Shown here: in pieces, positions 1 to 13,220 of the stretch
Position numbering within the stretch: the first letter of the stretch is position 1
How the letters are laid out: each line of letters opens with the position of its first letter
Assembly (NCBI GenBank): GCA_965223155.1
Contig: CBDCVR010000007.1
Coordinates: 1 to 25,326 of the forward strand
Source of the DNA: Candidatus Multivoradales bacterium
GTDB lineage: Bacteria > Acidobacteriota > Thermoanaerobaculia > Multivoradales > JAHEKO01
Length of the DNA stretch: 25,326 nt
Direction: 5' to 3'
Notes under the pieces: model-generated
Told to the model about the DNA's origin: nothing
The model's input: the letters and a program-made list of their open reading frames with translations, nothing else
Databases searched by the model: none
Position numbers and translations under genes: made by a program

Positions 1-2
1 TC

Positions 3-194
3 GAGGACGAAGAGCTCATCCGCCACTCGTCCGAGAACGCCCCCGTGGCTGCCGGAACGGAGCCAAGCGACGCCGGTGAGTACCGGGCGCCCGAGCTCGA
101 GAAGTTCACCGACATGGAAGAGCTCCTCGCCCTCGATCCCCCCACGCCGGGCGCTCTCGACAACTTGATGCGACAGCCGCTTGGCGACGACTAA
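3..194 (+). CDS. C-terminal part of a probable PqqD-family protein (5' end outside window)
   Basis: Frame from base 3 reads EDEELIR...GEYRAPELEKFTDMEELLALDPPTPGALDNLMRQPLGDD* (TAA 192-194). The YxxPxL..DM..LL.LDP tail resembles PqqD-family proteins found next to HPr-kinase-like genes. The PqqD domain itself is not in the window. Confidence 0.6.
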   Translation, partial: EDEELIRHSSENAPVAAGTEPSDAGEYRAPELEKFTDMEELLALDPPTPGALDNLMRQPLGDD

Positions 195-1226
195 TCGAAC
201 CGATCCGGTCGCGGCGAGCTTCGAGGAAGCCGCGCGCCGGTTCGCGCTTGCCACCGAGGCGGAGCCGCCGACCGCCGCCGACTACGACCTCGCCGGACAG
301 CACGTGGCGGTGCGAACGGTGGGCCACGAGCTGGGGACGGGAGCTCGCCCAACCCCTCGGCCACCTGACCGCCCACCGCACGAAGACACCCGCGCTCGAG
401 ATCGACCTCTGGCTCGGCTCAGAAACCGGAATCGACTGGCCGGAGCTCGCTGACGAGCTCGACCCCGCCGACCGGTTCCCGCTGCGCACCTCGGCCGACG
501 ATCGTTTCGTCGTGCACCGCCAGATCGAGACGGCCGTCTGGCTGGACCGCCAGGAAGGCGCATGGTGGGCGCCGTTCGCGATCTCGCTGGTAGATCTCTC
601 TATGAGCGCGGCCGGCCCCTGAAAACGCCGCTCACGGTCTGGATGCGCGACCGGAACGTTCAGGTCGCCCACGCCGCTTGCGTCGCCCTCGAAGGCCGCG
701 GAGCCCTCCTCCTGGGAGCTAGCGGCTCTGGCAAATCAACCCTGGCCGCTCGCTGCCTGGCGGCGGGCTTCGAGTTTCTGAGCGACGACAAGGTCGCTCT
801 TACCGGCGACGCCGCGACCGGATTCACCGGGCACAGCCTCAACAACTCCCTCCATCTCTCGGCCGATTCGATCGACCTGGTGCCCGAGCTGGCGGCCAGC
901 GCCGTAGCCCCGGCCACGAAGCTGGACGACAAGTTTCGGGTCCCACTCGCAGAGGGGCCGGTGGGCACCCCTGCTTCGCGCCCGCGCCGCCATCACCGTC
1001 CTGGTGCTGCCCCGGCTCGAGGCCGCGCCTGCAACTGGACGGGGCAAGCCCGCGCGAGGCTCTGCTCGCCCTCTCGCTCAGTACCCTGCTCTCGCTTCCG
1101 GTTCGGCGAGCGACCAGCCTCGACCGGCTGGCCGAAGCCGTCCGAGCCCTGCCGGCGCTTCATCTCGACGCCCGGGACGACGCCGCGCCCGAGCGGCTGC
1201 GCGAGATTCTGCGCAGCGGCGTCTAG
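181..1226 (+). pseudogene. HPr kinase/phosphorylase-like P-loop kinase, multiply frameshifted in this sequence
   Basis: Pieces from ORFs 181..453, 248..622, 562..1347 and later frames join into one protein with HAACV, Walker A GASGSGKST and FLSDD motifs. C-terminus ...ERLREILRSGV* (TAG 1224-1226). Shifts near 335, 560, 970, 1045 and 1170. Confidence 0.7.
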
Positions 1227-1255
1227 ACCCGAACCGCCCTCCGATCGGACGGCGC

Positions 1256-2318
1256 TCAGGAGCCCGGCCCGCGCCCTAGGAGCCGGTTGCCGATCCGCCG
1301 GGCCGGGAAGGTCACCGCCGTCCACGGATAGCGCGCGGCGATCTTGACCGCCGACCCCCACCACGGCCATCGCGAGAGGCCTTCGAGCCGGGCTGCGCGC
1401 AGGCCGCGGCGCACGAAAAAGTAGCGCCGATGCGGCCGGCGCCCGAGATCCTCCACGAGCCCCGAGAACCAGGGCCTGCGAGGCGGCAGCCAGCCGGCCC
1501 ATTCCGTCTCCTCCAGAAGACGAAAGAACTCCGGGGTGAAATCGTCCGGGCACTTGGGCATCCAGGGTTTCTCGACCCCGGCGAAATGGGCGACAGACGG
1601 CCTGGCAAGCGCCGCCTCGAACTCGTCGGCATCGAAGCAGGTCGAGCGGTGCGAGGGGATCTCCTGAACGTGGGTCATGCGATTCCAGACCAGAGGCAAT
1701 GGCGTCCAGCGCCCGGCCAGTGCGCAGTTGAGTCCCTGCTGGTCGGGCGACCAGAACTGCCGGCGGTAGCGAACCGCGAAGTCGATCGCCCGCCCGCAGA
1801 CGTCCTCGGCGCGCCAGCGGTCTAGTGGAATCAACATGAGCCCCCGAGTTGAAGACCGGCAGCGGCCGCGAAGCGTCGATCTCGGGAGGCACGAAGTGGT
1901 GGTGCAGATGATGCACCATCGTGTCCTGCACCGCCGCCACCAAACCGTCCGCAAAGTCCATCGACCACAGCGGCTCGAGGTCGGCCAGAACGATCATGTC
2001 CGCGTCCAGGAACAGGACCTTCGCCAGATCCCCTGGCAGCAAGCGATCCAGGACCAGGGGGACACAACTCGCCAGCGGAAATGAGTACTCGGCCAGGCCA
2101 GGGCGGCCAGCCGCTCACGGTTCAGCCGATGCCAGACCACGGCGACGCCGTCGCCACGCCAGGAGCGCGTCAGCCGTTCCCGGGTCCCCGGTCTCGAGTC
2201 CGGCGTCGATGGCATGAAACTCGAGCGGCCGCTTCGGGCCCCGATGCTCGATCACCGAAACGCCGAGCGCCGCCAAACCGATGGCGAAGCGCTCGTCGGC
2301 GCCCGCGACCACCACCAT
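1256..2318 (-). pseudogene. Glycosyltransferase family 8 domain, frameshifted in this sequence
   Basis: GT8 motifs spread across frames: VVVAGADERF (2115..2318), VLFLDADMIV and FNSG (993..2042), DQQGLN, WN and HFAGVEKPW (1256..1954). Confidence 0.8.
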
Positions 2319-2322
2319 CGGC

Positions 2323-3291
2323 TCATTCGAGGAGCCGCTCGTCTCGCCGGTCCACGTCTCGAGCCAGTGCCCGAGGTCGCGGCCGGTGATCGCCCTCGAC
2401 CCGGCGAACGTCGTCCGCGAACCGATCGTTGAGCCGGCGCCGGGTTTCCGTGCGCATCGTAGGCGGCTTGACCCAATTGAGCCGTCGGTTGACTGCCATC
2501 GCCGCCTCCCAGAGACGGCGCGACGACCCTCCGGGCAGCAACCTCTTGAGCGCCGAGCGCGTCGGACTGGGAGTGGTCAGCCAGTTCTCGGCCGCGGGCA
2601 GCCGGGTGATGCGGGCCCGATTGTGGCGCTCGCCCACGTCCACTTCGAAATCGTCCCGAACCCCGAGGAATCGAAAGAGCTCGACCAGAAACGACGCCGG
2701 ATCTCGCGCGAGGTCTTCGAAGAAGAGAACCTTGAGGCGTGCGGGCTCGAACAGGCGCAGATACCGCTCGAGCTGCTTCGCGTACAGCCCCTTCTGAACG
2801 TAGTGATACTGCTGACCCCAGTTCTCGGCAATCCGCCGCGGCTCGGCCGTCAAAGCCTCTTCGAAGCTCAAGGTCTCCTTGCCGCCTCTCAAGTTCATCA
2901 GATAGGCCGAGTAGGCGCGATCCGCCGGCTGGCGCAAGATCGCCACCAGCAGAGCCTCGCTGGCGTATCGCGCGATCTTCTCGGCCGCCCATTCGTCGTA
3001 CAGGTACAACGTCGTCGCTTCACCGGCGACCTTCTCGTCGGTGCGTCCGGCGAAAAGCGCTCGGTACTGCTCGAAAGTGCGGATACCGTCCGGGCGCCTC
3101 GTGGCTTCCAGCGGTCCCCCCCATCGCTCCCGTCCATCCACGAGGGCGAAAAACGCCGGCTCCTTGCGGGGCGACATATACACCTCAGGGTGCTGGCGCA
3201 GGTAATGGTACACCGAGGTCGTGCCCGCTTTCATGGCACCCAGAATCAAGAAGTCGGGCATCGCCCCGGAGCCGCTCCGCACGGTGAGCAT
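2323..3291 (-). CDS. PAPS-dependent sulfotransferase (probably continues into the GT8 domain)
   Basis: 5'-PSB motif PDFLILGAMKAGTTS, KEPAFF, GEATTLY and 3'-PB motif ILRQPADRAYSAY. The C-terminus appears shifted at about 2394. Confidence 0.88.
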   Translation of the reverse strand: MLTVRSGSGAMPDFLILGAMKAGTTSVYHYLRQHPEVYMSPRKEPAFFALVDGRERWGGPLEATRRPDGIRTFEQYRALFAGRTDEKVAGEATTLYLYDEWAAEKIARYASEALLVAILRQPADRAYSAYLMNLRGGKETLSFEEALTAEPRRIAENWGQQYHYVQKGLYAKQLERYLRLFEPARLKVLFFEDLARDPASFLVELFRFLGVRDDFEVDVGERHNRARITRLPAAENWLTTPSPTRSALKRLLPGGSSRRLWEAAMAVNRRLNWVKPPTMRTETRRRLNDRFADDVRRVEGDHRPRPRALARDVDRRDERLLE

Positions 3292-3355
3292 AATACTCCG
3301 CAGGCTCCGGCGCCTCGGCCCTTGCTATCCTGGCCTCGGGAGGACACCGCATTCG

Positions 3356-4076
3356 ATGCGAAATCTAGGTCTGGTCGGTCTGGCTCTTCTTCTCGCTCTG
3401 TCTTCGTTCGCCCCGGCGGCCGAGGCGGCGCGGATCCCCGATTGCCTCGACAATCCCGGCGTACCCGATCGGCTGGGTTTCACGCACCGAGTACCGATTC
3501 GCATTGGCGGCACATTCTGGTACTTCGCGGATCCGGGACTCCAGCTCTCCTCGACGCCGGACAACGTCGGCCAGCCGCAGGACATCCCCGGTCACTGCTG
3601 GTCGGTCTCGGCCCCCGCTGGGCCGGTATCCACGCTTCTTCGGGCACCACTACAACACCGGTCCGCTGGGAGCCGGGGCGCCCGGCCGGTTCTGGTCCAG
3701 CAATGCCCCGGATCACTCCCTGCTCTTTCTGGTCGACATCATCATCTCGCGCTGGACGCCCAAGCTCGCCCTCGAGCGCTTCAATGACGGCTACGTCCAC
3801 TACCACGAGCTGGTGCGCGAGGGCGACGGCTGCGTCCATCCCCGACTCGTGGCCTGGTTCAAGCACACGGCCATCGAGAGCTTCTCGTTCGACGGCGGGC
3901 CGCCGCCGGTGCTTCCGGACGGCACCTTCTTCCGGCCCCGCAACGTCCCGTTCAAAGTCAGGCCCGGCATCGCCCACGGCTTCATGGTCAACTACGACGT
4001 GCCCTACAAGCCGCAGCAGCAGCGCATCGGCCGCGAAGCGTTTCCGGTCGAAGTCTGCAAGCTGAGCCGCCAGTAG
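3356..4076 (+). CDS. Secreted hypothetical protein, one apparent frameshift near 3612
   Basis: ATG 3356 with GGAGG upstream and signal peptide MRNLGLVGLALLLALSSFAPAAEA. DIPGHCW in one frame continues as HHYNTGP...GYVHYHELV...WFKHTA...DGGP in ORF 3504..4076. The shift lies at a CCCCC run. Confidence 0.65.
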
Positions 4077-4099
4077 GGAATTCGGGAATTCGGTGACAG
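4077..4099 (+). repeat. Left half of REP-like motif (IS1111 target) with GGGAATTC duplication
   Basis: GGGAATTCGGGAATTCGGTGACAG rejoins with GATACATATTTC (5462-5473) when the IS is removed. Confidence 0.75.
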
Positions 4100-4189
4100 A
4101 TGAGATGAGTCGGTCGGTCTCCAGCTGGGACACTGTGCCAGTTGGAGATAACCAAGAATCGGCATCAGAGCCGAGAAAGGAGACCGACC

Positions 4190-5203
4190 ATGGAGTATCT
4201 TGGCATCGATGTTCACTCGAAGTACAGCGAGGTGTGTGGCGTATCAGAAGACGGTGAGGTGACGGTTCGCCGGCGGGTTCCGACGACCGAGACGGGCCTG
4301 CGAAGGTTCTTCGCCAATCGGGAACGCTCGCAGGTGACGCTCGAGAGCGGTCCGGTCACACCCTGGGTCTATCGACTGCTGTCTGAGCTCGGCCATGAGG
4401 TGATGGTGGTCAATCCACGCCGGGTACGTCTGATCGCGGAATCGACCCTGAAGACGGACGGAATCGACGCCGAGATCCTGGCTCGTTTGAGCCGGTTGGA
4501 TCTGGGTTTGCTTCGACCAGTCTACCAGCGCACAGGTGAGGCCCAAGAGCTTCGGACGCGTCTTCGGGTCCGAACGAGTCTGGTGAAGACCAGGACCTCG
4601 CTGATCAACTCCGTACGCGGAACGCTGCGGGCACAGGGCTACCGAGTGCCCTCATGTCCGGCGAAGAGCTTCGTGGCTCGGTACGCGTCGATGTCGGTCG
4701 AAGCCGGCCTGTTGGGAGCGCTCGAACCTCTGGTAACGACAATCGGCGAGCTGACCGATCGGATCCACCATCTCGAAGACGACCTCATCTCCGAGTCGAG
4801 ATCAAACGAGCTGGTCCGTCGGCTGCAGACGGTTCCTGGTGTGGGGCCTCTGGTGAGCCTTGCGTTCGTCGGCTGGATGGATCGTCCGGATCGGTTCGAG
4901 AAAAGCCGCGACGTCGGAGCGTGTCTGGGCTTGAGACCGTCGCTTCGCAGCTCAGGAGGGCATGAGGTCAGGGGCCGGATCACTCGCGAGGGCGACTCGG
5001 AGATGCGCAGACTCTTGGTGCAGGCAGCTCATGCGGCGTTGAACTGTCGCAAAGAGTCGTCACTCAAGAGATGGGCTGAGGGCCTGGTCGAGAGGCTGGG
5101 TAAGGGCAAGGCCGTGGTCGCGCTAGCTAGGAAGATCGCGGTGTTGCTCCACAGGCTGTGGGTGACAGGTGAGAGCTTCCGAGCCTTTCCCAAGGCAGCG
5201 TAG
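4190..5203 (+). CDS. IS110/IS1111-family DEDD transposase (RNA-guided recombinase), 337 aa
   Basis: RBS AAGGAG then ATG 4190. YLGIDVH, LESG and KTDGID (DEDD), VVNP, TVPGVG, GLRP..RSSGG (catalytic Ser region) and ALARK. Confidence 0.96.
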   Translation: MEYLGIDVHSKYSEVCGVSEDGEVTVRRRVPTTETGLRRFFANRERSQVTLESGPVTPWVYRLLSELGHEVMVVNPRRVRLIAESTLKTDGIDAEILARLSRLDLGLLRPVYQRTGEAQELRTRLRVRTSLVKTRTSLINSVRGTLRAQGYRVPSCPAKSFVARYASMSVEAGLLGALEPLVTTIGELTDRIHHLEDDLISESRSNELVRRLQTVPGVGPLVSLAFVGWMDRPDRFEKSRDVGACLGLRPSLRSSGGHEVRGRITREGDSEMRRLLVQAAHAALNCRKESSLKRWAEGLVERLGKGKAVVALARKIAVLLHRLWVTGESFRAFPKAA

Positions 5204-5235
5204 AAGAGATAACTAGACGACCAACAAGCAAGGAC

Positions 5236-5395
5236 GGATTGAGAGGTTCGATGACTCCGAAAGTATCCTTGGTGGCCCCGACACCGTGTGACAGATGGGA
5301 GCATCGATTCCTAAACGGACGCAAAACTCACCATGCACCGGTTCAAAGAAGAACCCTACAGAGTGCGAATAGAAGCTCGTCCCAAGCCTCGATCC
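5236..5395 (+). ncRNA. Predicted bridge/seek RNA of the IS1111 element
   Basis: Closing stem GGATTGAG/CTCGATCC. Loop 1 is closed by TCGATG-CTCC/GGAG-CATCGA and carries the target matches. Loop 2 is closed by GGACG/CGTCC and carries the donor match. Transcript ends unknown. Confidence 0.8.
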
Positions 5396-5461
5396 AAACC
5401 TAAGGAAAACTACAAAAAGAAGAAACGAAACTCTTGACGCCAACCGACCGACTCATAGAAG

Positions 5462-5580
5462 GATACATATTTCGGGACTGTCCCTCTGCGGCCGGACCCT
5501 TCCCTTGAAACGAGTATCCTGTCACCGAATCCGAATTCACCGAATCCGAATTCTGTCACCGAATCCGACACCGAATCCGG
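5462..5580. repeat. REP/REPIN-like repeat cluster with an empty IS target
   Basis: GGGACTGTCCC near-palindrome (5474-5484), full inverted motif GAAACGAGTATCCTGTCACCG (5507-5527), and four clustered copies of CACCGAATCCG. Confidence 0.8.
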
Positions 5581-5606
5581 ATTTAGTGAGATGATGGCCG
5601 GGCAGC

Positions 5607-7619
5607 GTGCACATCAAGCGTCGATTCAGGGGCGCCGCCGTTACGGCGGCCATCTGGACCGCGGTGGTGACCCCGGACCCCGCGGCGGCCCAGCCGGCGG
5701 TCGTCCGTGTCACGGTCACCCAGGTCACGGCCCTTGACTGCCTCGATCCGGCGGGTCTGTCGTGCGCCGGCGCCGACTTCTACGCCAAGCTGAGCGTCGA
5801 CGGCGAGACGGTCCAGACACCGCACATCGATGATGCGACCTCGATCTCGCCGAACTGGACGCTGGAGCGGTCCGTGGCCCGCAATCCGGTGCCCGTCCGG
5901 ATCGAGATCTGGGAGTCCGATAGCTGGTTCCGGGACGGCGACGACCCGGTGGATCTCAAGTCTGCCCCGGGCCGGAGCCTCAATCTCTCGGTCGACACCC
6001 AGGCCGGCAGAATCTCGGGCAACCTCACCGGCAGAACCAACACGGCCCTGACGTCGGCCGGAACCGAGTCCGGCCGGGCCCGAATCACCTTCCGCATCGA
6101 CGTCGTGACGCGTCCCAAGCTGGGAGAGCTCGCGATCACCGTGGAGCGCTTGACCACCCTCGAGACGGTGGACGACGGCGTCACCGGACGCCAAGGCCGG
6201 GCCGACTACTACGTCCGGGCAGCCATCGACGGCATCGTCACCAGCAACCGCGACGACCCGACCACCTCCGTCTACTGCGACCACGACGAGCTGGCTCCGT
6301 ACTGGACCTTCAAGCGAATCGTTAATCTGAACCGTCGCTCGATTCCGTTCGCCCTCGAGCTAATGGATGCCGACAACAACGCCGACGACCGGGTCGACAT
6401 CCAGCCCGGCCTAGGCCGGGTCCTGCACATGACGGTGACGCCGAGCACCTGCCGGATCCAAGGCGACGTCACCGGCCGTTGTGCCGGTCCGTTTGACGCC
6501 AGGGGGCGGATCGTGGCCTCCGGCGAACAGGACGACCGCGCACGCATCCAGGTCCGCGTCGAGCTGCGCCGGCCGCCGCCCTTCGCATTGCGCTGCCTAC
6601 ACTCGCCACTCTGGCCGCGTCCCGGACAAACGGTCTCGATCCGGGCCGAGGCCCTCGACAGCCAGCTCGACCCGGTGGTCGCGGACGGCATTCAAATCGG
6701 CGTCGCGGGCACCGGCAGGATCCACTCCTGCGACAACGCTGGGGCCTGCACTCTCAACGTCATGATGCCGGCGGGCGCGACACGGTTTGACTACATCTGC
6801 CAGGCGCAGCGCTTCCGCAGGACGGTCACGACCGGCCTACGCCAGGTAGCCGTCGGGGCCAGGCCCGGCGAGCGAGCCGTCCCGATCTTGAGACATCAAC
6901 CCTCAGCCAAGGCCCTCGACCTCGTGTTCCTGGCCGATCTCGACACCTTCTCGACCGCGTCCGAGACCGCCTATCTCGGCGCGGTCGAATTCTTGATCCG
7001 CTCCGGTCTCTTTCGGAATCCTCCGTTGGTCCTCAACCAACAACGTCTCAACCTGTGGATCGCCAAGGACCTGGCCGATGCCAACGGTTTCGTGCCGGGA
7101 AGCACGGTGCGCTGCAGCCAGCCGCCGTCGAACTGGACCACCGCTTACGGCTTCGCGGACTCGGGCATCGTCGTGCACCAAGAAGCGATTCGGGACTGCG
7201 CCGACTTCGCCACGGTCGGGCCTCAGGGCCAGATCTTGCGCCCGATGGTGAGCACTCCGGCCAACTCTCCCGGCGTTCTGCTACACGAGCTGGGGCACAT
7301 GCCCTTCGGCCTGGCCGACGAATACTGCTGTGACGGCGGCTACTTTCAAACCGGATTCGCCCCTAACGTCTACGCCTCGGCCAACGCGACCCAGTCGAGC
7401 GCGGCCTGCCGGGCCGATCCTCTTGCTGCTCTCCTGGGCGCCTGCGGCGCCTTCACCGAAAACCGCCCACCGAGCCGGCGGCGGGTGTTTCGCCTCGATC
7501 ACCCTCCAGGAAGCCGGTTCGACTTCCGTGACGTCTCGAACGACCTGATGGTGGACGACGGCACCCTCCGGCCCGCCGACGTTCGACGATTTCAACACGT
7601 GTTCCGAAGCCTTCCGTGA
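5607..7619 (+). CDS. Secreted multidomain zinc metallopeptidase (M64-like C-terminal domain)
   Basis: Probable signal peptide, two repeated beta-rich (C2-like) modules with AD(F/Y)Y...P.WT...D..DD.VD, then DLVFLAD and VLLHELGHMPFGLADEY (HExxH...GLxDEY). Confidence 0.8.
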   Translation: MHIKRRFRGAAVTAAIWTAVVTPDPAAAQPAVVRVTVTQVTALDCLDPAGLSCAGADFYAKLSVDGETVQTPHIDDATSISPNWTLERSVARNPVPVRIEIWESDSWFRDGDDPVDLKSAPGRSLNLSVDTQAGRISGNLTGRTNTALTSAGTESGRARITFRIDVVTRPKLGELAITVERLTTLETVDDGVTGRQGRADYYVRAAIDGIVTSNRDDPTTSVYCDHDELAPYWTFKRIVNLNRRSIPFALELMDADNNADDRVDIQPGLGRVLHMTVTPSTCRIQGDVTGRCAGPFDARGRIVASGEQDDRARIQVRVELRRPPPFALRCLHSPLWPRPGQTVSIRAEALDSQLDPVVADGIQIGVAGTGRIHSCDNAGACTLNVMMPAGATRFDYICQAQRFRRTVTTGLRQVAVGARPGERAVPILRHQPSAKALDLVFLADLDTFSTASETAYLGAVEFLIRSGLFRNPPLVLNQQRLNLWIAKDLADANGFVPGSTVRCSQPPSNWTTAYGFADSGIVVHQEAIRDCADFATVGPQGQILRPMVSTPANSPGVLLHELGHMPFGLADEYCCDGGYFQTGFAPNVYASANATQSSAACRADPLAALLGACGAFTENRPPSRRRVFRLDHPPGSRFDFRDVSNDLMVDDGTLRPADVRRFQHVFRSLP

Positions 7620-8269
7620 CGACTCGCATGCTCGACTACATCAGCCTTTCGAAGCTGCCCGATCCAACCGGGCTTCTCGGCACGTTCGTGCTGGCTGTCG
7701 CCGTCGCGCTGGCCGGCTGTGCCGTCGAGGAATCGGCCGAGCTGGGAACCGCCGCGACCCGGACCGAGCTCGTCCAACCGACGGTAGCGATCGAAGCGGT
7801 CGAGACCGCCCCGGCGGTGCCTCCGGCCGCAACCGTCGAAGCCGACCCTCCCGACGCCAAGGTCATCGCCGTGGACTTGACCGCCAGCGGCACCGGCGAC
7901 GACTTCGACGTCGAGCTGTCAAACGTTCGCATCCTCCCTGGGGTCGCGCCCAACACCGTCGGCAATCCCCCGCTTCTCGACATCGAGCTCCGGGATTCCG
8001 AGGGCGAGAGCCTGTCGCGCTTCTTCGCGTGGGATCCACGCTGGACCTTCGTCTGGGACGCCGACCACCGCGGGGAAGAGCTCGTAGTCCGGCAAGAAGC
8101 GACGGTGCCGGTACTCTTCCCGTTTCGGCCCGACCTCGCCGAGATGCTCGTCTTCACGGAACAGCAGGGACGCCGGCACCTCGCCTCGATCGACCTCGCA
8201 CCCACGATCCTCGATTTCTGCGCGGTCAATCCGGGAGATCCGGACTGCGCCGCGGTACGCGTGCCCTAG
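7616..8269 (+). CDS. Putative lipoprotein, partner of the peptidase
   Basis: GTGA overlap with the upstream stop, hydrophobic stretch and lipobox LAGC, Pro/Ala-rich linker, terminal Cys pair. Confidence 0.7.
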   Translation: MTTRMLDYISLSKLPDPTGLLGTFVLAVAVALAGCAVEESAELGTAATRTELVQPTVAIEAVETAPAVPPAATVEADPPDAKVIAVDLTASGTGDDFDVELSNVRILPGVAPNTVGNPPLLDIELRDSEGESLSRFFAWDPRWTFVWDADHRGEELVVRQEATVPVLFPFRPDLAEMLVFTEQQGRRHLASIDLAPTILDFCAVNPGDPDCAAVRVP

Positions 8270-8333
8270 GAATCCGCCCCTAGCCAGGCAGTCTGGCGGT
8301 CGAAACGGGGAAGATGCCGTCCACCGAATCCCC

Positions 8334-9482
8334 CTAGAGATCGCTTACCAATCGCGCGGCTGCGACAGCTCGCACCTTCTTGGACAGGGCAAACGTCTCT
8401 TGGCCCGCGTGGATCACGTTCAGCTCATGGAGGTCGAGCGACTCCAGCGCCGCTCTCATCGATGCCGTGACCCTAGGACTCGATGTCCGCTTGAACTCGA
8501 ATCCGATCCGGCGGCGGCCAATCCGAGCGAAGAAATCGAGCTCCGCGCCGGTGTGTGTAGCCCAGAAATGGACCTGGTCATCCGCGAGGCCAAGCTCGCC
8601 GATCACCTGTTCGAGCAGAAATCCTTCCCAGGAAGCTCCCACTTTGGGGTGCGACTCCAAATCCTCGTGCGCGTCGATTCGAAGAAGCGAATGCAGCAAT
8701 CCACTGTCGCGCAGATAGACCCTCGGAGACCGGACCTGGCGCTTCGAGGTATTTGCAAACCACGGCTGCGCCTGCCGGACAACGAGTGCCGATGTCAGAA
8801 GATCCAAGTAGCGACGGACCGTGACATCCGAAACTCCGAACGAACGCCCGAATTCGGATCCATTCCAAGTCTGGCCATGCCAGTGTGCCAGCATCGTCCA
8901 GAACCGCCGGAGCGTGGTCGCCCCAATCCGAATCCCGAGCTGCGGCAAATCTCGCTCCAAGAAGGTTCGCACGAAGCTCTCCCGCCATGTTCGGCTATCC
9001 CGGAGCGACCGAGCCAGGAAAGACCGAGGGAAGCCTCCGCGCAGCCAGAGCTTCTGAAGGGATCCCTCCCGTACCTCGGACAGCAAGAAGCCAGGCAGGT
9101 TGTAGTAGGAAATCCGACCCGCCAGGGTTTCGGACGACTGTCGCAACAGCTCGGGCGAAGCGCTTCCGAGCACTAGAAAGCGAGCTCTTGTCGGTCTTCG
9201 GTCGGCCAGGACACGAAGTACCGGAAAGAGATCCGGCCTGCGCTGAACCTCGTCGAGCACAACGAGGCCCTGGAGGTCACTGAGCGCCAAGTGGGGATCG
9301 TCAAGACGCGCAAGATCCGGAGGGTTTTCCAAATCGAAATGATGGCACGGCTTCGTTTGAGAGCGCGCGATCTGCTGACTCAGAGTCGTCTTACCGACCT
9401 GGCGGGCTCCCAGGATGGCAACCACGGGGAACGTCCGAAGCCGATCCAAGATTGTCTTGACATGATGAGACCGCTCGATCAC
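8334..9482 (-). CDS. AAA-family ATPase with DUF4143 domain
   Basis: GARQVGKTT, VVLDEVQR, LGSAS, ETLAGR, RGGFP, YLRDSGL and C-terminal ELDF...FEFK. Confidence 0.92.
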   Translation of the reverse strand: MIERSHHVKTILDRLRTFPVVAILGARQVGKTTLSQQIARSQTKPCHHFDLENPPDLARLDDPHLALSDLQGLVVLDEVQRRPDLFPVLRVLADRRPTRARFLVLGSASPELLRQSSETLAGRISYYNLPGFLLSEVREGSLQKLWLRGGFPRSFLARSLRDSRTWRESFVRTFLERDLPQLGIRIGATTLRRFWTMLAHWHGQTWNGSEFGRSFGVSDVTVRRYLDLLTSALVVRQAQPWFANTSKRQVRSPRVYLRDSGLLHSLLRIDAHEDLESHPKVGASWEGFLLEQVIGELGLADDQVHFWATHTGAELDFFARIGRRRIGFEFKRTSSPRVTASMRAALESLDLHELNVIHAGQETFALSKKVRAVAAARLVSDL

Positions 9483-9498
9483 CGGAGAACCTTACCAC

Positions 9499-9527
9499 GA
9501 AATCTCGAAGGTAAGCGTCGAAATTTC
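9499..9527. promoter_or_regulatory. Imperfect palindrome upstream of the ATPase (possible operator)
   Basis: GAAATCTCGA-N9-TCGAAATTTC, 9/10 complementary, 16 bp upstream of the GTG start. Confidence 0.4.
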
Positions 9528-9585
9528 AGGCAAGATTGCCGGCTGGCGGATGTTTATCCTCATCTCGCCAGGATCAGGCCTCGAC

Positions 9586-9613
9586 GAAATGAATACCCTG
9601 TCACCGAGAATTC
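9586..9613 (-). repeat. REP-like motif, unoccupied variant
   Basis: GAAATGAATACCCTGTCACCG-AGAATTC, 18/21 identical to 5507-5527. Abuts the stop codon of ORF 9612..10319. Confidence 0.75.
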
Positions 9614-10319
9614 ACGGGCCGGGGATACACGGTCGGCAGCGGCAGGTGAAGAAAAAGAAGAAGCACTTGCAGCATGCGAAGTCATCCGGATTGCCGCAGC
9701 TCACCTCGCAGCCGGAGAAGACCGAGCAGGTCACGCTACACGCGTTGGCGCCCTCGCCGCCGGCATCGCAGTCGTCACCGTTCACGCACTGCCCTGATGC
9801 CGGGTCGTGGTAGTCGTACCAGAACGACTCGGGCCAGGACTGGAGTTGGTCCCAAACGTGGTCGTGAACGCCGTGATCGATCCCGAAAAGCGGGCTGTTC
9901 GTCACCATCGCGAGCTCGAGTCCATTCGTCGCTCGAAAGACGAATGCTCCCGGAGGCGCCTGGCCTGGCCCTTCCCCGTTCCCGCTCCCGGAGGCGCCCT
10001 TCGGATTCCTGACCGTCAGCAGAACGACGAACCGCGCGTCGGGACCGACGACCTTGAGCGACCTGTCCTTGACGGTCACGACGGCGTCGTCGACGTGCTC
10101 CCACCAGGTCGGCTCCAGACGATCCTCGCCGGTGAAGAGAAAAAACTCGTCGACCTTGTCGTCGCTGTCGGCCGCGGAGTCCAAAGCAACAAGCACCCGC
10201 CCGAGCTCATCGACTCCAACCACGACGTCTCCAAACTCCACTCGCGCCGAGTCGCTCGATCCCAGCGCCGGACCGGCAATGAGACACGAGCACAGCACGA
10301 TCAGCGAAGAACACCTCAT
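9612..10319 (-). CDS. Secreted protein with Cys-rich C-terminal domain
   Basis: RBS GGAGGAG, signal peptide, and tail CVNGDDCDAGGEGANACSVTCSVFSGCEVSCGNPDDFACCKCFFFFFTCRCRPC (12 Cys). Confidence 0.8.
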   Translation of the reverse strand: MRCSSLIVLCSCLIAGPALGSSDSARVEFGDVVVGVDELGRVLVALDSAADSDDKVDEFFLFTGEDRLEPTWWEHVDDAVVTVKDRSLKVVGPDARFVVLLTVRNPKGASGSGNGEGPGQAPPGAFVFRATNGLELAMVTNSPLFGIDHGVHDHVWDQLQSWPESFWYDYHDPASGQCVNGDDCDAGGEGANACSVTCSVFSGCEVSCGNPDDFACCKCFFFFFTCRCRPCIPGP

Positions 10320-11410
10320 AGCTCCTCCGATCAGGGGCCGTCGGAAGCGAATGCCCCTCTACTTATCTAATTTCCGTAGCGAGGGGTTTCCTGACAAGAA
10401 ATTGCTGCTTCTTGAGCGGGGGAAAGCGGAGAAAGCGGTGACAGATGAGATGAGTCGGTCGGTCTCCAGCTGGGACACTGTGCCAGTTGGAGATAACCAA
10501 GAATCGGCATCAGAGCCGAGAAAGGAGACCGACCATGGAGTATCTTGGCATCGATGTTCACTCGAAGTACAGCGAGGTGTGTGGCGTATCAGAAGACGGT
10601 GAGGTGACGGTTCGCCGGCGGGTTCCGACGACCGAGACGGGCCTGCGAAGGTTCTTCGCCAATCGGGAACGCTCGCAGGTGACGCTCGAGAGCGGTCCGG
10701 TCACACCCTGGGTCTATCGACTGCTGTCTGAGCTCGGCCATGAGGTGATGGTGGTCAATCCACGCCGGGTACGTCTGATCGCGGAATCGACCCTGAAGAC
10801 GGACGGAATCGACGCCGAGATCCTGGCTCGTTTGAGCCGGTTGGATCTGGGTTTGCTTCGACCAGTCTACCAGCGCACAGGTGAGGCCCAAGAGCTTCGG
10901 ACGCGTCTTCGGGTCCGAACGAGTCTGGTGAAGACCAGGACCTCGCTGATCAACTCCGTACGCGGAACGCTGCGGGCACAGGGCTACCGAGTGCCCTCAT
11001 GTCCGGCGAAGAGCTTCGTGGCTCGGTACGCGTCGATGTCGGTCGAAGCCGGCCTGTTGGGAGCGCTCGAACCTCTGGTAACGACAATCGGCGAGCTGAC
11101 CGATCGGATCCACCATCTCGAAGACGACCTCATCTCCGAGTCGAGATCAAACGAGCTGGTCCGTCGGCTGCAGACGGTTCCTGGTGTGGGGCCTCTGGTG
11201 AGCCTTGCGTTCGTCGGCTGGATGGATCGTCCGGATCGGTTCGAGAAAAGCCGCGACGTCGGAGCGTGTCTGGGCTTGAGACCGTCGCTTCGCAGCTCAG
11301 GAGGGCATGAGGTCAGGGGCCGGATCACTCGCGAGGGCGACTCGGAGATGCGCAGACTCTTGGTGCAGGCAGCTCATGCGGCGTTGAACTGTCGCAAAGA
11401 GTCGTCACTC

Positions 11411-12782
11411 GAGTTATCGTCAAATGTTGTGTACGGGTGACTCAGGCGGCGATCCGGTTCTTGGGTTCTCCATCAACGAATTTGACACCTCGGACAACGT
11501 CGGCGATTCGCTTGTAGCCCTGTAGCCGCCGCCATCGTTTCTCGGCACTCTGGCTCAGCTTGAAGACCATCGAGAGCATGGTCTCGCGGGAGAGACAACC
11601 ACGGGTCTTGGCCGTTCGAAGGCGTACGGTGGCAAAGGTCGACTCGATCGGGTTCGTGGTCCTGAGATGGACCCAATGCTCGGCCGGGAAATCGTAGAAG
11701 GTCAGCAGGACCTTGCGATCCTTGGCCAGGCAACGCGTCGCCTTCGGGTACTTGGCCCCGTAGGTCGACAGGAAGGCATCGAAGGCTCGCTCGGCAGCCT
11801 CGCGCGTTTCGGCCATCCAGACCTGGTGCAGCGCCTGCTTGGCCTTTGGCTGGACGGCCTTGGGCATCTTGTTCAAGACGTTGCCGGTCTTGTGGACCCA
11901 GCAACGCTGGGTCTTGGTGTTGCTCCAGACCTGAGCCAGGGCCTTCCAGAAGCCCAGAGCGCCGTCACCGGTCGCCAGCTTCGGCTCGATGGCAAGCCCT
12001 CGCGCTTCGAGTCCACGCAAGAGCTCGAGCCAGGAAGCCTCGCTCTCGCGGTAGCCGTCTTCGACGGCGATGAGCTCCTTGGTGCCGTCCTCGGTGGCGC
12101 CAATCAGTACCAGCAGGCACAGCTTCGCGTCGTCCAGACGAGCCTTGGTATGGATCCCATCCGCCCACACGTAGACGTAGCGCTTGGAGGACAAGTCCCG
12201 GGTGCGCCAGTCGGTGTACTCCTTGGCCCAGACTTTCTTCAGACGGCTGATCGTCGCGGCTGACAACCCCGGGGCGTCGGGGCCTACCAGAGCTTCCAGG
12301 GCATCGGAGAAATCTCCGGTGGAGATGCCGCGCAGATAGAGCCACGGCAGCAGCTCCTCGACGCTCTTGGCCCGTCTGAGATACGGAGGCGCGATCTTCG
12401 AGCGAAAGACCAACTCACCTTCACGATCCCGAACCCGAGGCACCTTCACCGGCACACCTCCGATTCCCGTCTGGATCTCACGCTCGCGCAGGTAGCCGTT
12501 GCGAACCATGCGGCGCCGGCCATCTTCCGTTTGCTCGCCTCGGTACTCGGCCAGGAAGCTCTCGACCTCGGCTTCGATCGCTTCGCGAAGCAACTCGCGT
12601 GAGCCGCGGCGAAGCACTTCGGTCAAGGCATCTCTCGAACTCTCTGATCGGTCAATCGAAACTACGTTACTCTTGCTCAAGGCGTATCCTCCTTCTTTGA
12701 GGGTTTGAATCCGATTTGGAAAACCGGACTCAGGATACGCCGCCTTCATCTCAACTCATACACAACTTTCGACCATAGCTCC
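11411..12782 (-). mobile_element. IS256-family insertion sequence
   Basis: 8-bp target duplication CGTCACTC (11403-11410, 12783-12790). Imperfect terminal IRs GAGTTATCGTCAAATGTTGTGTA / TACACAACTTTCGACCATAGCTC. Confidence 0.95.
11442..12680 (-). CDS. IS256-family (Mutator-like) DDE transposase
   Basis: RNGY..R, VPRVRDR, YLRGISTGDF, VWADGI, TGDGALGF, QRCWVHK and TTNPIES motifs. Likely TTG start at 12680 after AAGGAGG. Confidence 0.95.
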   Translation of the reverse strand: MSKSNVVSIDRSESSRDALTEVLRRGSRELLREAIEAEVESFLAEYRGEQTEDGRRRMVRNGYLREREIQTGIGGVPVKVPRVRDREGELVFRSKIAPPYLRRAKSVEELLPWLYLRGISTGDFSDALEALVGPDAPGLSAATISRLKKVWAKEYTDWRTRDLSSKRYVYVWADGIHTKARLDDAKLCLLVLIGATEDGTKELIAVEDGYRESEASWLELLRGLEARGLAIEPKLATGDGALGFWKALAQVWSNTKTQRCWVHKTGNVLNKMPKAVQPKAKQALHQVWMAETREAAERAFDAFLSTYGAKYPKATRCLAKDRKVLLTFYDFPAEHWVHLRTTNPIESTFATVRLRTAKTRGCLSRETMLSMVFKLSQSAEKRWRRLQGYKRIADVVRGVKFVDGEPKNRIAA

Positions 12783-12960
12783 CGTCACTCAAGAGATGGG
12801 CTGAGGGCCTGGTCGAGAGGCTGGGTAAGGGCAAGGCCGTGGTCGCGCTAGCTAGGAAGATCGCGGTGTTGCTCCACAGGCTGTGGGTGACAGGTGAGAG
12901 CTTCCGAGCCTTTCCCAAGGCAGCGTAGAAGAGATAACTAGACGACCAACAAGCAAGGAC

Positions 12961-13120
12961 GGATTGAGAGGTTCGATGACTCCGAAAGTATCCTTGGTGG
13001 CCCCGACACCGTGTGACAGATGGGAGCATCGATTCCTAAACGGACGCAAAACTCACCATGCACCGGTTCAAAGAAGAACCCTACAGAGTGCGAATAGAAG
13101 CTCGTCCCAAGCCTCGATCC
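12961..13120 (+). ncRNA. Predicted bridge/seek RNA, copy 2
   Basis: Same sequence as 5236-5395 (offset 7725). Confidence 0.78.
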
Positions 13121-13220
13121 AAACCTAAGGAAAACTACAAAAAGAAGAAACGAAACTCTTGACGCCAACCGACCGACTCATAGAAGGATACTCATTCCGC
13201 CAGGTCGGAGCCCCGGTTTC

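Follow-up and report, generated by a model that had tools for sequence, protein, structure and literature searches.

Insertion sequences (ISs) of the IS110 family that are directed by a seekRNA or bridge RNA have been known as a class since 2024 (PMC11187229; PMC11208160). Siddiquee, Pong, Hall, and Ataide described the seekRNA elements ISEc11, ISPa11, ISKpn4, and ISPst6 (2024; PMC11187229), and bridge RNAs are predicted in the right end of 93% of catalogued elements of the IS1111 group (PMC11208160). Here we analyze a window of 25,326 nucleotides from a Candidatus Multivoradales bacterium, which is the whole of one 25-kb contig (C7) in a 15-contig, 4.0-Mb assembly. Positions 4100 to 5459 of the window are a 1360-bp intact and recently active IS of the IS1111 group (IS110 family), and the region from 5248 to 5382, in the noncoding stretch downstream of its transposase gene, very probably encodes the functional guide RNA of this IS1111-type element, with two internal loops that read the target site and the two ends of the IS.

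The element has much in common with the IS1111 seekRNA elements: a DEDD transposase of about 340 amino acids (aa), the GL-P----SG motif, subterminal inverted repeats, a long noncoding region downstream of the gene, orientation-specific insertion at a fixed short site, and natural reprogramming among relatives. It differs in its target, GTGAC-AG-GATAC. As in the seekRNAs of ISEc11, ISPa11, and ISKpn4, the segment complementary to the top strand lies 5′ of the segment complementary to the bottom strand, and the two overlap in the target (PMC11187229). With IS621 (PMC11208160; 8WT6 and related) the element shares a two-loop RNA for target and donor in which each loop reads both strands around a 2-nucleotide (nt) core. 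The recombinases of both combine RuvC-like DEDD and Tnp domains, and the transposase here is only distantly similar to the IS621 protein (E = 6e-10). The core of IS621 is CT, whereas that of the element here is AG, and IS621 is without long subterminal repeats, whereas the element here has repeats of 13 bp. The IS621 RNA lies in the left end of the element, and its guide order is reversed relative to the one reported here (PMC11187229). A further parallel is with ISPpu9/ISPpu10 and ISPa11, IS110 family elements that insert into repetitive extragenic palindromes: here, too, the target is a dispersed palindromic repeat, but one of different sequence, with variable stems and a constant loop. Extra copies of the RNA gene ssr9 have been reported for Pseudomonas putida, whereas a covariance model of the RNA described below found no orphan RNA-gene copies in the element's own genome.

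An IS1111-group element in a dispersed hairpin repeat

The 337-aa product of the transposase gene matches PF01548 (E = 8.5e-25) and PF02371 (E = 4.5e-21) in Pfam, scores 241 bits against the NCBIfam model NF033542, “IS110 family RNA-guided transposase” (cutoff, 140), and is distantly similar to the solved transposases of IS621 and ISCro4 (E about 1e-10). Its N-terminal, RuvC-like domain carries the DEDD residues D7, E52, D90, and D93, and the motif GL-P----S(T)G, defined for the IS1111 group (PMC11187229), is present in the C-terminal (PF02371) domain as GLRPSLRSSG at residues 247 to 256, with S255-G256. Across 40 relatives these positions are invariant or nearly so; within the motif, G247, P250, and S255 are invariant, and L248 and G256 are kept in at least 90%. 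The subterminal inverted repeats, ATGAGTCGGTCGG and CCGACCGACTCAT, are 13 bp long and lie 5 nt and 3 nt from the termini, within the range of 7 to 17 bp given for the IS1111 group (PMC11208160), and the gene leaves noncoding stretches of 90 nt upstream and 256 nt downstream, the arrangement of that group. We place the element in the IS1111 group because it combines subterminal inverted repeats with a long noncoding region downstream of the gene, features set out in PMC11187229 and PMC11208160. The domain matches and this architecture bear out the class to which an earlier note on this DNA had assigned the protein, that of IS110/IS1111 RNA-guided recombinases.

A protein search returned 2801 relatives at E ≤ 1e-30 among 8000 scored candidates, many of them exactly 337 aa long; the nearest database proteins are metagenomic entries labeled “IS110 family transposase,” with at most 87% identity. 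For comparison we fetched 80 metagenomic loci and one locus from a metagenome-assembled genome (50 to 86% identity), and a single-protein scan of genome contigs gave two loci, one of them useful (L020, 85% identity).

There are 15 copies of the element in the assembly, of which 14 are whole and 1 is split, together with two copies of a sister element, IS_B, that is 82% identical, and one 40-nt left-end fragment. The earlier note had raised the prospect of further copies at unrelated sites; instead, all 15 copies share both site and orientation, the site- and orientation-specific insertion characteristic of the IS1111 group. The left flank is GGTGACAG in 15 of 15 copies, and the right flank is AGGATAC in 14 and AGGATGC in 1. 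There is no conventional target duplication: the two junctions have only the dinucleotide AG in common, of which empty sites carry a single copy. Two pairs of occupied and empty sites with identical flanks (copy 2 in the window versus C14:366086, and C11:2930 versus another site in C14) establish that AG is single before insertion and double after it. Copy-to-copy comparison and an occupied/empty site pair also fix the left boundary of the element at position 4100. Removing either window copy restores CGGTGAC-AG-GATAC, as had been claimed from the window alone, and C14:366086 is the empty version of the copy 2 site, with a single AG.

The exact 13-mer GGTGACAGGATAC is found unoccupied at 17 sites in the whole assembly; by simple arithmetic, the 12-mer would turn up by chance about 0.5 times in two-strand sequence of 8 Mb. 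Insertion takes place in the loop of a hairpin repeat that is dispersed through the genome, GAAATnnG-GTGACAGGATAC-nnTATTTC, with the consensus gaAat.CG-GTGACAGGATAC-.tATttc, in which the loop is constant and the arms vary yet stay complementary. Genome-wide there are 32 such hairpin-repeat sites, about half of which (15 of 32) are occupied, and they often occur as inverted pairs 45 to 80 bp apart. Because the insertion site is a dispersed palindromic repeat, each genome offers many identical targets.

Positions 1 to 10444 of the window are 98.9% identical to C14:355657-366092, with an additional IS in the window where the chromosome has an empty site, and a second small contig (C11) repeats this pattern. 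This identity and the occupied/empty pairs indicate that the small contigs are variants of chromosomal regions differing by IS insertions, and the assembly appears to include either insertion polymorphisms of a mixed population or regions that are duplicated. The element accounts for assembly breaks associated with repeats and continues to move within the population that was sequenced. The second copy in the window is dead as an autonomous element because a Mutator/IS256-type IS interrupts its transposase gene; an 8-bp duplication at this nested IS is indicated by the two BLAST segments of copy 2, which overlap by 8 nt. Copy 2 keeps both ends and an intact guide-RNA region, with an identical seekRNA region at 12967 to 13108 that the covariance model matches at 147.4 bits. 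Around copy 1, the large flanking open reading frames (2281 to 4065, 594 aa; 5607 to 7619, 670 aa) are without a Pfam match at E ≤ 0.001.

Target guides follow the flanking DNA

The internal loop of the first stem-loop carries two segments complementary to the target's two strands, which overlap at the core, and the segment that pairs with the top strand is the 5′ one. Both match the flanks of all 15 genomic copies. The earlier note had read the whole of AGTATCCT as the reverse complement of the core and right target; seven of its nucleotides are robust, and the eighth fits only some copies. Because right-flank position 8 varies among the 15 copies, we take the robust pairing to be 7 + 7 nt that share the AG, covering a 12-bp site. 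A conserved G at flank position -8 lies opposite U in the guide. Of 20,000 mononucleotide shuffles of the 256-nt noncoding region, 1 yielded both a stretch of 7 nt or more matching the left flank and core and a stretch of 7 nt or more complementary to the core and right flank.

Across relatives, the 5′ guide agreed with the complement of right-flank positions 3 to 9 at 281 of 393 positions (72%), against a permuted mean of 146.8 (37%), and none of 5000 permutations was as high; this test used a fixed register, excluded the core, and covered 60 distinct guide-flank combinations. The 3′ guide agreed with left-flank positions -7 to -3 at 111 of 120 positions (92%; permuted mean, 78.0, or 65%; 0 of 5000 as high; n = 24). 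From the 81 covariance-model matches described below, those lacking a right end, having less than 9 nt of flank, or duplicating another row exactly in guide and flank were left out of the right-flank test, leaving 60, and those lacking a left end that starts with AT, having less than 7 nt of flank, or duplicating another row were left out of the left-flank test, leaving 24; the AT rule excluded one mis-called left end (L023). Natural reprogramming is seen in IS_B and in about 40 distinct guide variants whose flanks change accordingly.

Donor guides follow the element ends

The internal loop of the second stem-loop carries segments complementary to the donor, that is, to the ends of the IS itself, although the left-end guide is imperfect in some subgroups. 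The ends are nearly invariant in close relatives, and the test of these guides therefore rests on more distant subgroups; the counts that follow are per locus and not de-duplicated. The left end ATGAG is accompanied by the loop segment CTCA in 27 of 27 loci, ATGGG by CCCA in 24 of 26 (one has TCCA and one CCCC, possibly misaligned), ATTG(C/T) by CCAA in 11 of 11, ATGGA by ACCA in 4 of 4 (with three of four positions pairing), and ATGTG by CTCA in a single locus, with one mismatch. At the other end, CATAAA occurs with an ATAAAAG guide in 3 of 3 loci and CATAGA with ATAGAAG in 61 loci. Both predicted donor assignments are thus supported by co-variation: CTCA as the reader of the left end, which had been the weakest claim of the earlier note, and ATAGAAG as the counterpart of the right end and core.

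Structure and conservation of the predicted RNA

The closing stem of the target-binding stem-loop is formed by TCGATGACTC (5248 to 5257) and GGAGCATCGA (5298 to 5307), which pair as TCGATG-A-CTCC/GGAG-CATCGA with A5254 as a single bulge. An apical hairpin at 5270 to 5286 (TGGTG/CACCG) caps the loop, and the internal loop between hairpin and stem holds both target guides. The donor-binding stem-loop is built alike, with an apical hairpin at 5334 to 5367 (TGCAC/GTGCG and GGTTC/GAACC) and both donor guides in its internal loop. These parts all lie at the positions proposed from the letters of the window, namely, the stem TCGATG-CTCC/GGAG-CATCGA with its GGTG/CACC hairpin and GTGACAG, and the stem GGACG/CGTCC with CTCA, the GCAC/GTGC-GGTTC/GAACC hairpin, and ATAGAAG. 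The fold suggested as a check came out in part as expected: the minimum free energy (MFE) fold of 5204 to 5461 reproduces both stem-loops, at an energy no better than that of shuffled sequences. With the energy ordinary, a single-sequence fold alone proves nothing, and support for the RNA structure needed comparison.

The structure test used 27 aligned, nonredundant 3′ regions. In this alignment 90.0% of cells at paired positions were paired, compared to 28.9 to 48.3% when the partners were slid by 1 to 3 columns, and 13 of 30 pairs had changed on both sides. Double-change cells numbered 65, compared to 23.8 in shuffles, and none of 500 shuffles was as high. In helix 1, 7 of 10 pairs changed on both sides, and in helix 2, 3 of 5; helix 5 has two pairs with double changes, one of which is UA in 13 sequences and CG in 10. 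An independent RNAalifold prediction also yields the inner part of each stem-loop. A covariance check on homologues, proposed in the earlier note, has thus been carried through with a positive outcome on both counts, since the stems covary and each of the target guides tracks its flank. The noncoding end of the element accordingly holds a conserved structured element with internal loops, as expected of a seekRNA or bridge RNA.

A covariance model, R1, built on 5242 to 5383 and its relatives, finds 81 matches across 85 sources, every one of them downstream of the gene and on the strand of the transposase. In the element's own genome it matches 17 places, which are the 15 copies of the element and the 2 copies of IS_B, with 0 orphans. 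The limits proposed for the RNA, 5236 to 5395, held for the core (5248 to 5382), which is conserved, and less well for the outer parts, which come from a stem seen in the closest relatives only. That outer stem (5236 to 5246/5387 to 5395) was left out of the model: the MFE fold contains it and the closest relatives contain it in part, but RNAalifold did not recover it. Features of the element, its target, and its second copy are collected in Table 1.

Table 1. Positions in the window of the element, its predicted guide RNA, its target flanks, and copy 2
Feature	Position	Strand	Description
Left target flank GGTGACAG	4092..4099	+	last two bases AG (4098-4099), core copy at left junction
IS left end, 90 nt	4100..4189	+	begins ATGAG, followed by subterminal inverted repeat ATGAGTCGGTCGG (4105-4117)
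Transposase/recombinase gene, 337 aa	4190..5203	+	identified by Pfam, NCBIfam, residues, and motif
Putative long seekRNA/bridge RNA	5236..5395	+	conserved structured core 5248-5382
Target-binding stem-loop	5248..5307	+	closing stem 5248-5253/5302-5307 and 5255-5258/5298-5301
5′ target guide AGTATCCT	5262..5269	+	complementary to top strand of core + right flank, AGGATAC(T)
3′ target guide GTGACAG	5288..5294	+	same as top strand of left flank + core; would pair with bottom strand
Donor-binding stem-loop	5317..5382	+	closing stem GGACG (5317-5321)/CGTCC (5378-5382)
5′ donor guide CTCA	5327..5330	+	complementary to TGAG, bases 2-5 of left end ATGAG
3′ donor guide ATAGAAG	5369..5375	+	same as last five bases of right end + AG core
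Conserved TTGACG, -35-like box	5434..5439	+	faces outward across right end
IS right end	5444..5459	+	CCGACCGACTCAT (5444-5456) + terminal extension AGA
Right target flank AGGATAC	5460..5466	+	AG (5460-5461), core copy at right junction
Empty target site GGTGACAGGATAC	5514..5526	-	other arm of the palindromic repeat hosting copy 1
Copy 2, left part	10445..11410	+	99.5% identical to copy 1; left flank GCGGTGACAG
Nested Mutator/IS256-type IS	11411..12782	-	transposase 11442-12749 (-), PF00872, E = 1.8e-65
Copy 2, right part	12783..13184	+	100% identical to copy 1; right flank AGGATACTCATT

Alternative explanations

Several results weigh against reading this region as a guide RNA with a target loop and a donor loop. 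The single-sequence fold energy is ordinary (z = -0.74; 47 of 200 shuffles fold as well), and an Rfam search of 3900 to 5700 at E up to 10 found no family match, only chance-level microRNA and small nucleolar RNA hits (E ≥ 0.62). Helix 4, in the donor loop, never varies and so contributes zero covariation support. A scan of the linear sequence from 4050 to 5500 found no sigma-70-like promoter, and no RNA run is listed as containing the sequence, which tells neither for nor against a transcript. The guide for the left end measures only 4 nt, both ATGGA/ACCA and ATTG(C/T)/CCAA pair at only three of four positions, and the one locus with the left end ATGTG keeps CTCA. The relatives share phylogeny, so that the permutation p-values overstate independence; the 5′ guide signal holds with one row per distinct guide (205 of 285, n = 43). 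Finally, the coding region contains, at 5161 to 5169, an additional stretch of 9 nt that matches the target, GGTGACAGG. We considered GGTGACAGG as an extra guide and rejected it, as it belongs to a conserved coding stretch (LWVTGESF) and the IS_B sequence at this place ignores the IS_B target; the match, in the WVTG codons, is probably coincidental.

Some of these points would also fit an RNA in which only the first stem-loop (5248 to 5307) guides, the second (5317 to 5382) being a scaffold for protein binding or processing and the IS ends being read by the transposase through the inverted repeats. For ISEc11, a seekRNA of 70 to 100 nt with target matches was enough, and what the long RNA does was not established there (PMC11187229); long subterminal repeats are present here for a protein to read, the short left-end guide pairs imperfectly in two of the four end types, and most of the second loop is invariant, which leaves few chances to observe co-variation. 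Where that loop does vary, it varies with the ends (ATGAG/CTCA, 27 of 27; ATGGG/CCCA, 24 of 26; ATTG/CCAA, 11 of 11; CATAAA/ATAAAAG, 3 of 3), its donor segments sit on opposite strands of the internal loop just as the target guides do, and loops complementary to the donor are reported in the IS1111 members inspected by Durrant et al. (PMC11208160). The co-variation appears to argue against a mere scaffold, through few independent changes, and we judge a scaffold improbable.

A more radical alternative, and a very remote one in our view, is that the matches function as DNA or are historical, whether as captured remnants of a target or alongside a site choice made by the protein alone, with the structure serving as a terminator or in mRNA stability. 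It would sit comfortably with the unremarkable fold energy, the missing transcript data, and the additional target-like 9-mer in the coding region. A captured target would look otherwise, however, since one guide is sense and the other antisense, with the pair divided over an internal loop, and in relatives the guides change with the flanks while the stems keep pairing through compensatory changes. The terminator version meets a further obstacle: the only terminator-like site in 4050 to 5500 is on the minus strand, at the left end, with none on the plus strand. In the IS1111 members studied by experiment, moreover, the corresponding RNA is essential and is purified together with the transposase (PMC11187229). 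Guidance by the RNA encoded at 5248 to 5382 is therefore the reading we adopt below.

Proposed mechanism and expression

By analogy with the studied members (PMC11187229; PMC11208160), the element would excise as a circle with the junction ...CTCATAGA-AG-ATGAGATGAG... (CATAGA-AG-ATGAG). The DEDD/SG recombinase would bind the two-loop RNA, which is probably transcribed along with the transposase message and processed afterwards. The 12-bp site GTGAC-AG-GATAC would be paired on both strands by the first internal loop of the RNA, whose 5′ guide would read the top strand of the core and right flank and whose 3′ guide would read the bottom strand of the left flank and core. The second internal loop would pair likewise with the circle junction, CTCA with the left end and ATAGAAG with the right end and core. 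Recombination at the common AG would then insert the element in a single orientation and leave one AG at each junction. In this scheme, RNA transcription and processing, binding by the protein, the circle intermediate, and any order of strand exchange are inferred. The element reveals no new mechanism.

Expression might be tied to the circle. TTGA[CT] is found 25 to 26 nt from the right end in 56 of 59 distinct right-end tails, and the circle junction would carry the hexamer GAAGAT at a spacing of 17 to 18 nt from TTGACG, with a final T that exists only in the circle. Given the conservation of TTGA(C/T), TTGACG and GAAGAT may form a junction promoter that is completed only upon circularization. 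Contigs of four DNA runs, compared over 3900 to 5700, showed no joints, circle junction, or skipped form, and contigs cannot show rare forms; the same contigs have many different flanks at both ends of the IS.

RNA-guided IS110/IS1111 recombinases are under development as programmable DNA-insertion tools, and the locus offers a decoded natural example, in which target, donor, core, and four guides were read from sequence and cross-checked in three ways within one genome, against the 15 insertions, the 17 empty sites, and the two pairs of occupied and empty sites. The roughly 80 relatives, with their many naturally reprogrammed guides, could serve to train or test guide rules for the less-studied IS1111 branch, including the 7 + 7 nt lengths, the wobble and mismatch that are tolerated, and the behavior of the core. 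The target is new as far as named relatives go, none having come up in the protein search, and the subfamily may be catalogued in ISfinder or in the supplements of published papers.

A sister element with different target and donor cores

IS_B, from the same genome, has the same ends and stems as the element at 4100 to 5459 and different guides with correspondingly different flanks. It carries AAAAGGGT as 5′ guide and GTGCCAG as 3′ guide and is flanked by GGT(T/G)CCAG and A(C/G)CCTTT. The two copies lie at C15:372322-373624 (L016) and C13:297859-299161 (L017) of the assembly (G000), and the copy flanks read GGTTCCAG...ACCCTTTT and GGTGCCAG...AGCCTTTC. Its target, GGT(T/G)CC-AC-CC(T/C)TTT, has the core AC, whereas that of the donor is AG. 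Unoccupied sites in this genome (C14:185512, 185556, and 187764; C4:9445) read GGTTCC-AC-CCTTTT. AC is specified by the 5′ target guide, which ends in GT, and AG by both the 3′ guide and the donor loop; the left and right junctions are AG and AC in L016 and both AG in L017. Eleven distinct relatives show this asymmetry as well: guides ending in GT occur with AC flanks in 11 distinct combinations and guides ending in CT with AG flanks in 34.

A tentative interpretation is that IS_B and at least 11 distinct relatives recombine across a core that is mismatched at position 2, or use a 1-nt crossover. On the same reading, which we hold to be possible but doubtful, the left junction would always receive the donor core and the right junction the target core. 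If true, an asymmetry fixed in this way could give clues to the order in which strands are exchanged and might favor insertion over excision. The mismatch may interest specialists and concerns the sister lineage; in the element at 4100 to 5459 both guides read AG, and nothing unusual is implied for its core.

About 100 bp downstream of the L017 copy of IS_B, the solo 40-nt left-end fragment lies in inverted orientation (about 2929 to 2971 of that locus; G000:C13:299287-299326, minus strand). It is flanked by GGTTCCAG and may be a remnant of an earlier insertion or the product of a rearrangement.

Ends and junctions of another kind occur in a more distant group of metagenome loci (L061, L077 to L080, L082, L088 to L091, and L101; about 52% protein identity), which have the left end ATTG(C/T)ATGAG and TG at the left junction. 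In this subgroup the donor-loop segment is ATAGACG, the 3′ target guides end in TG or CG, and the right junctions are AG, GT, or GG. Empty sites beside L088 read GGGTACC-AG-GTATCCC.

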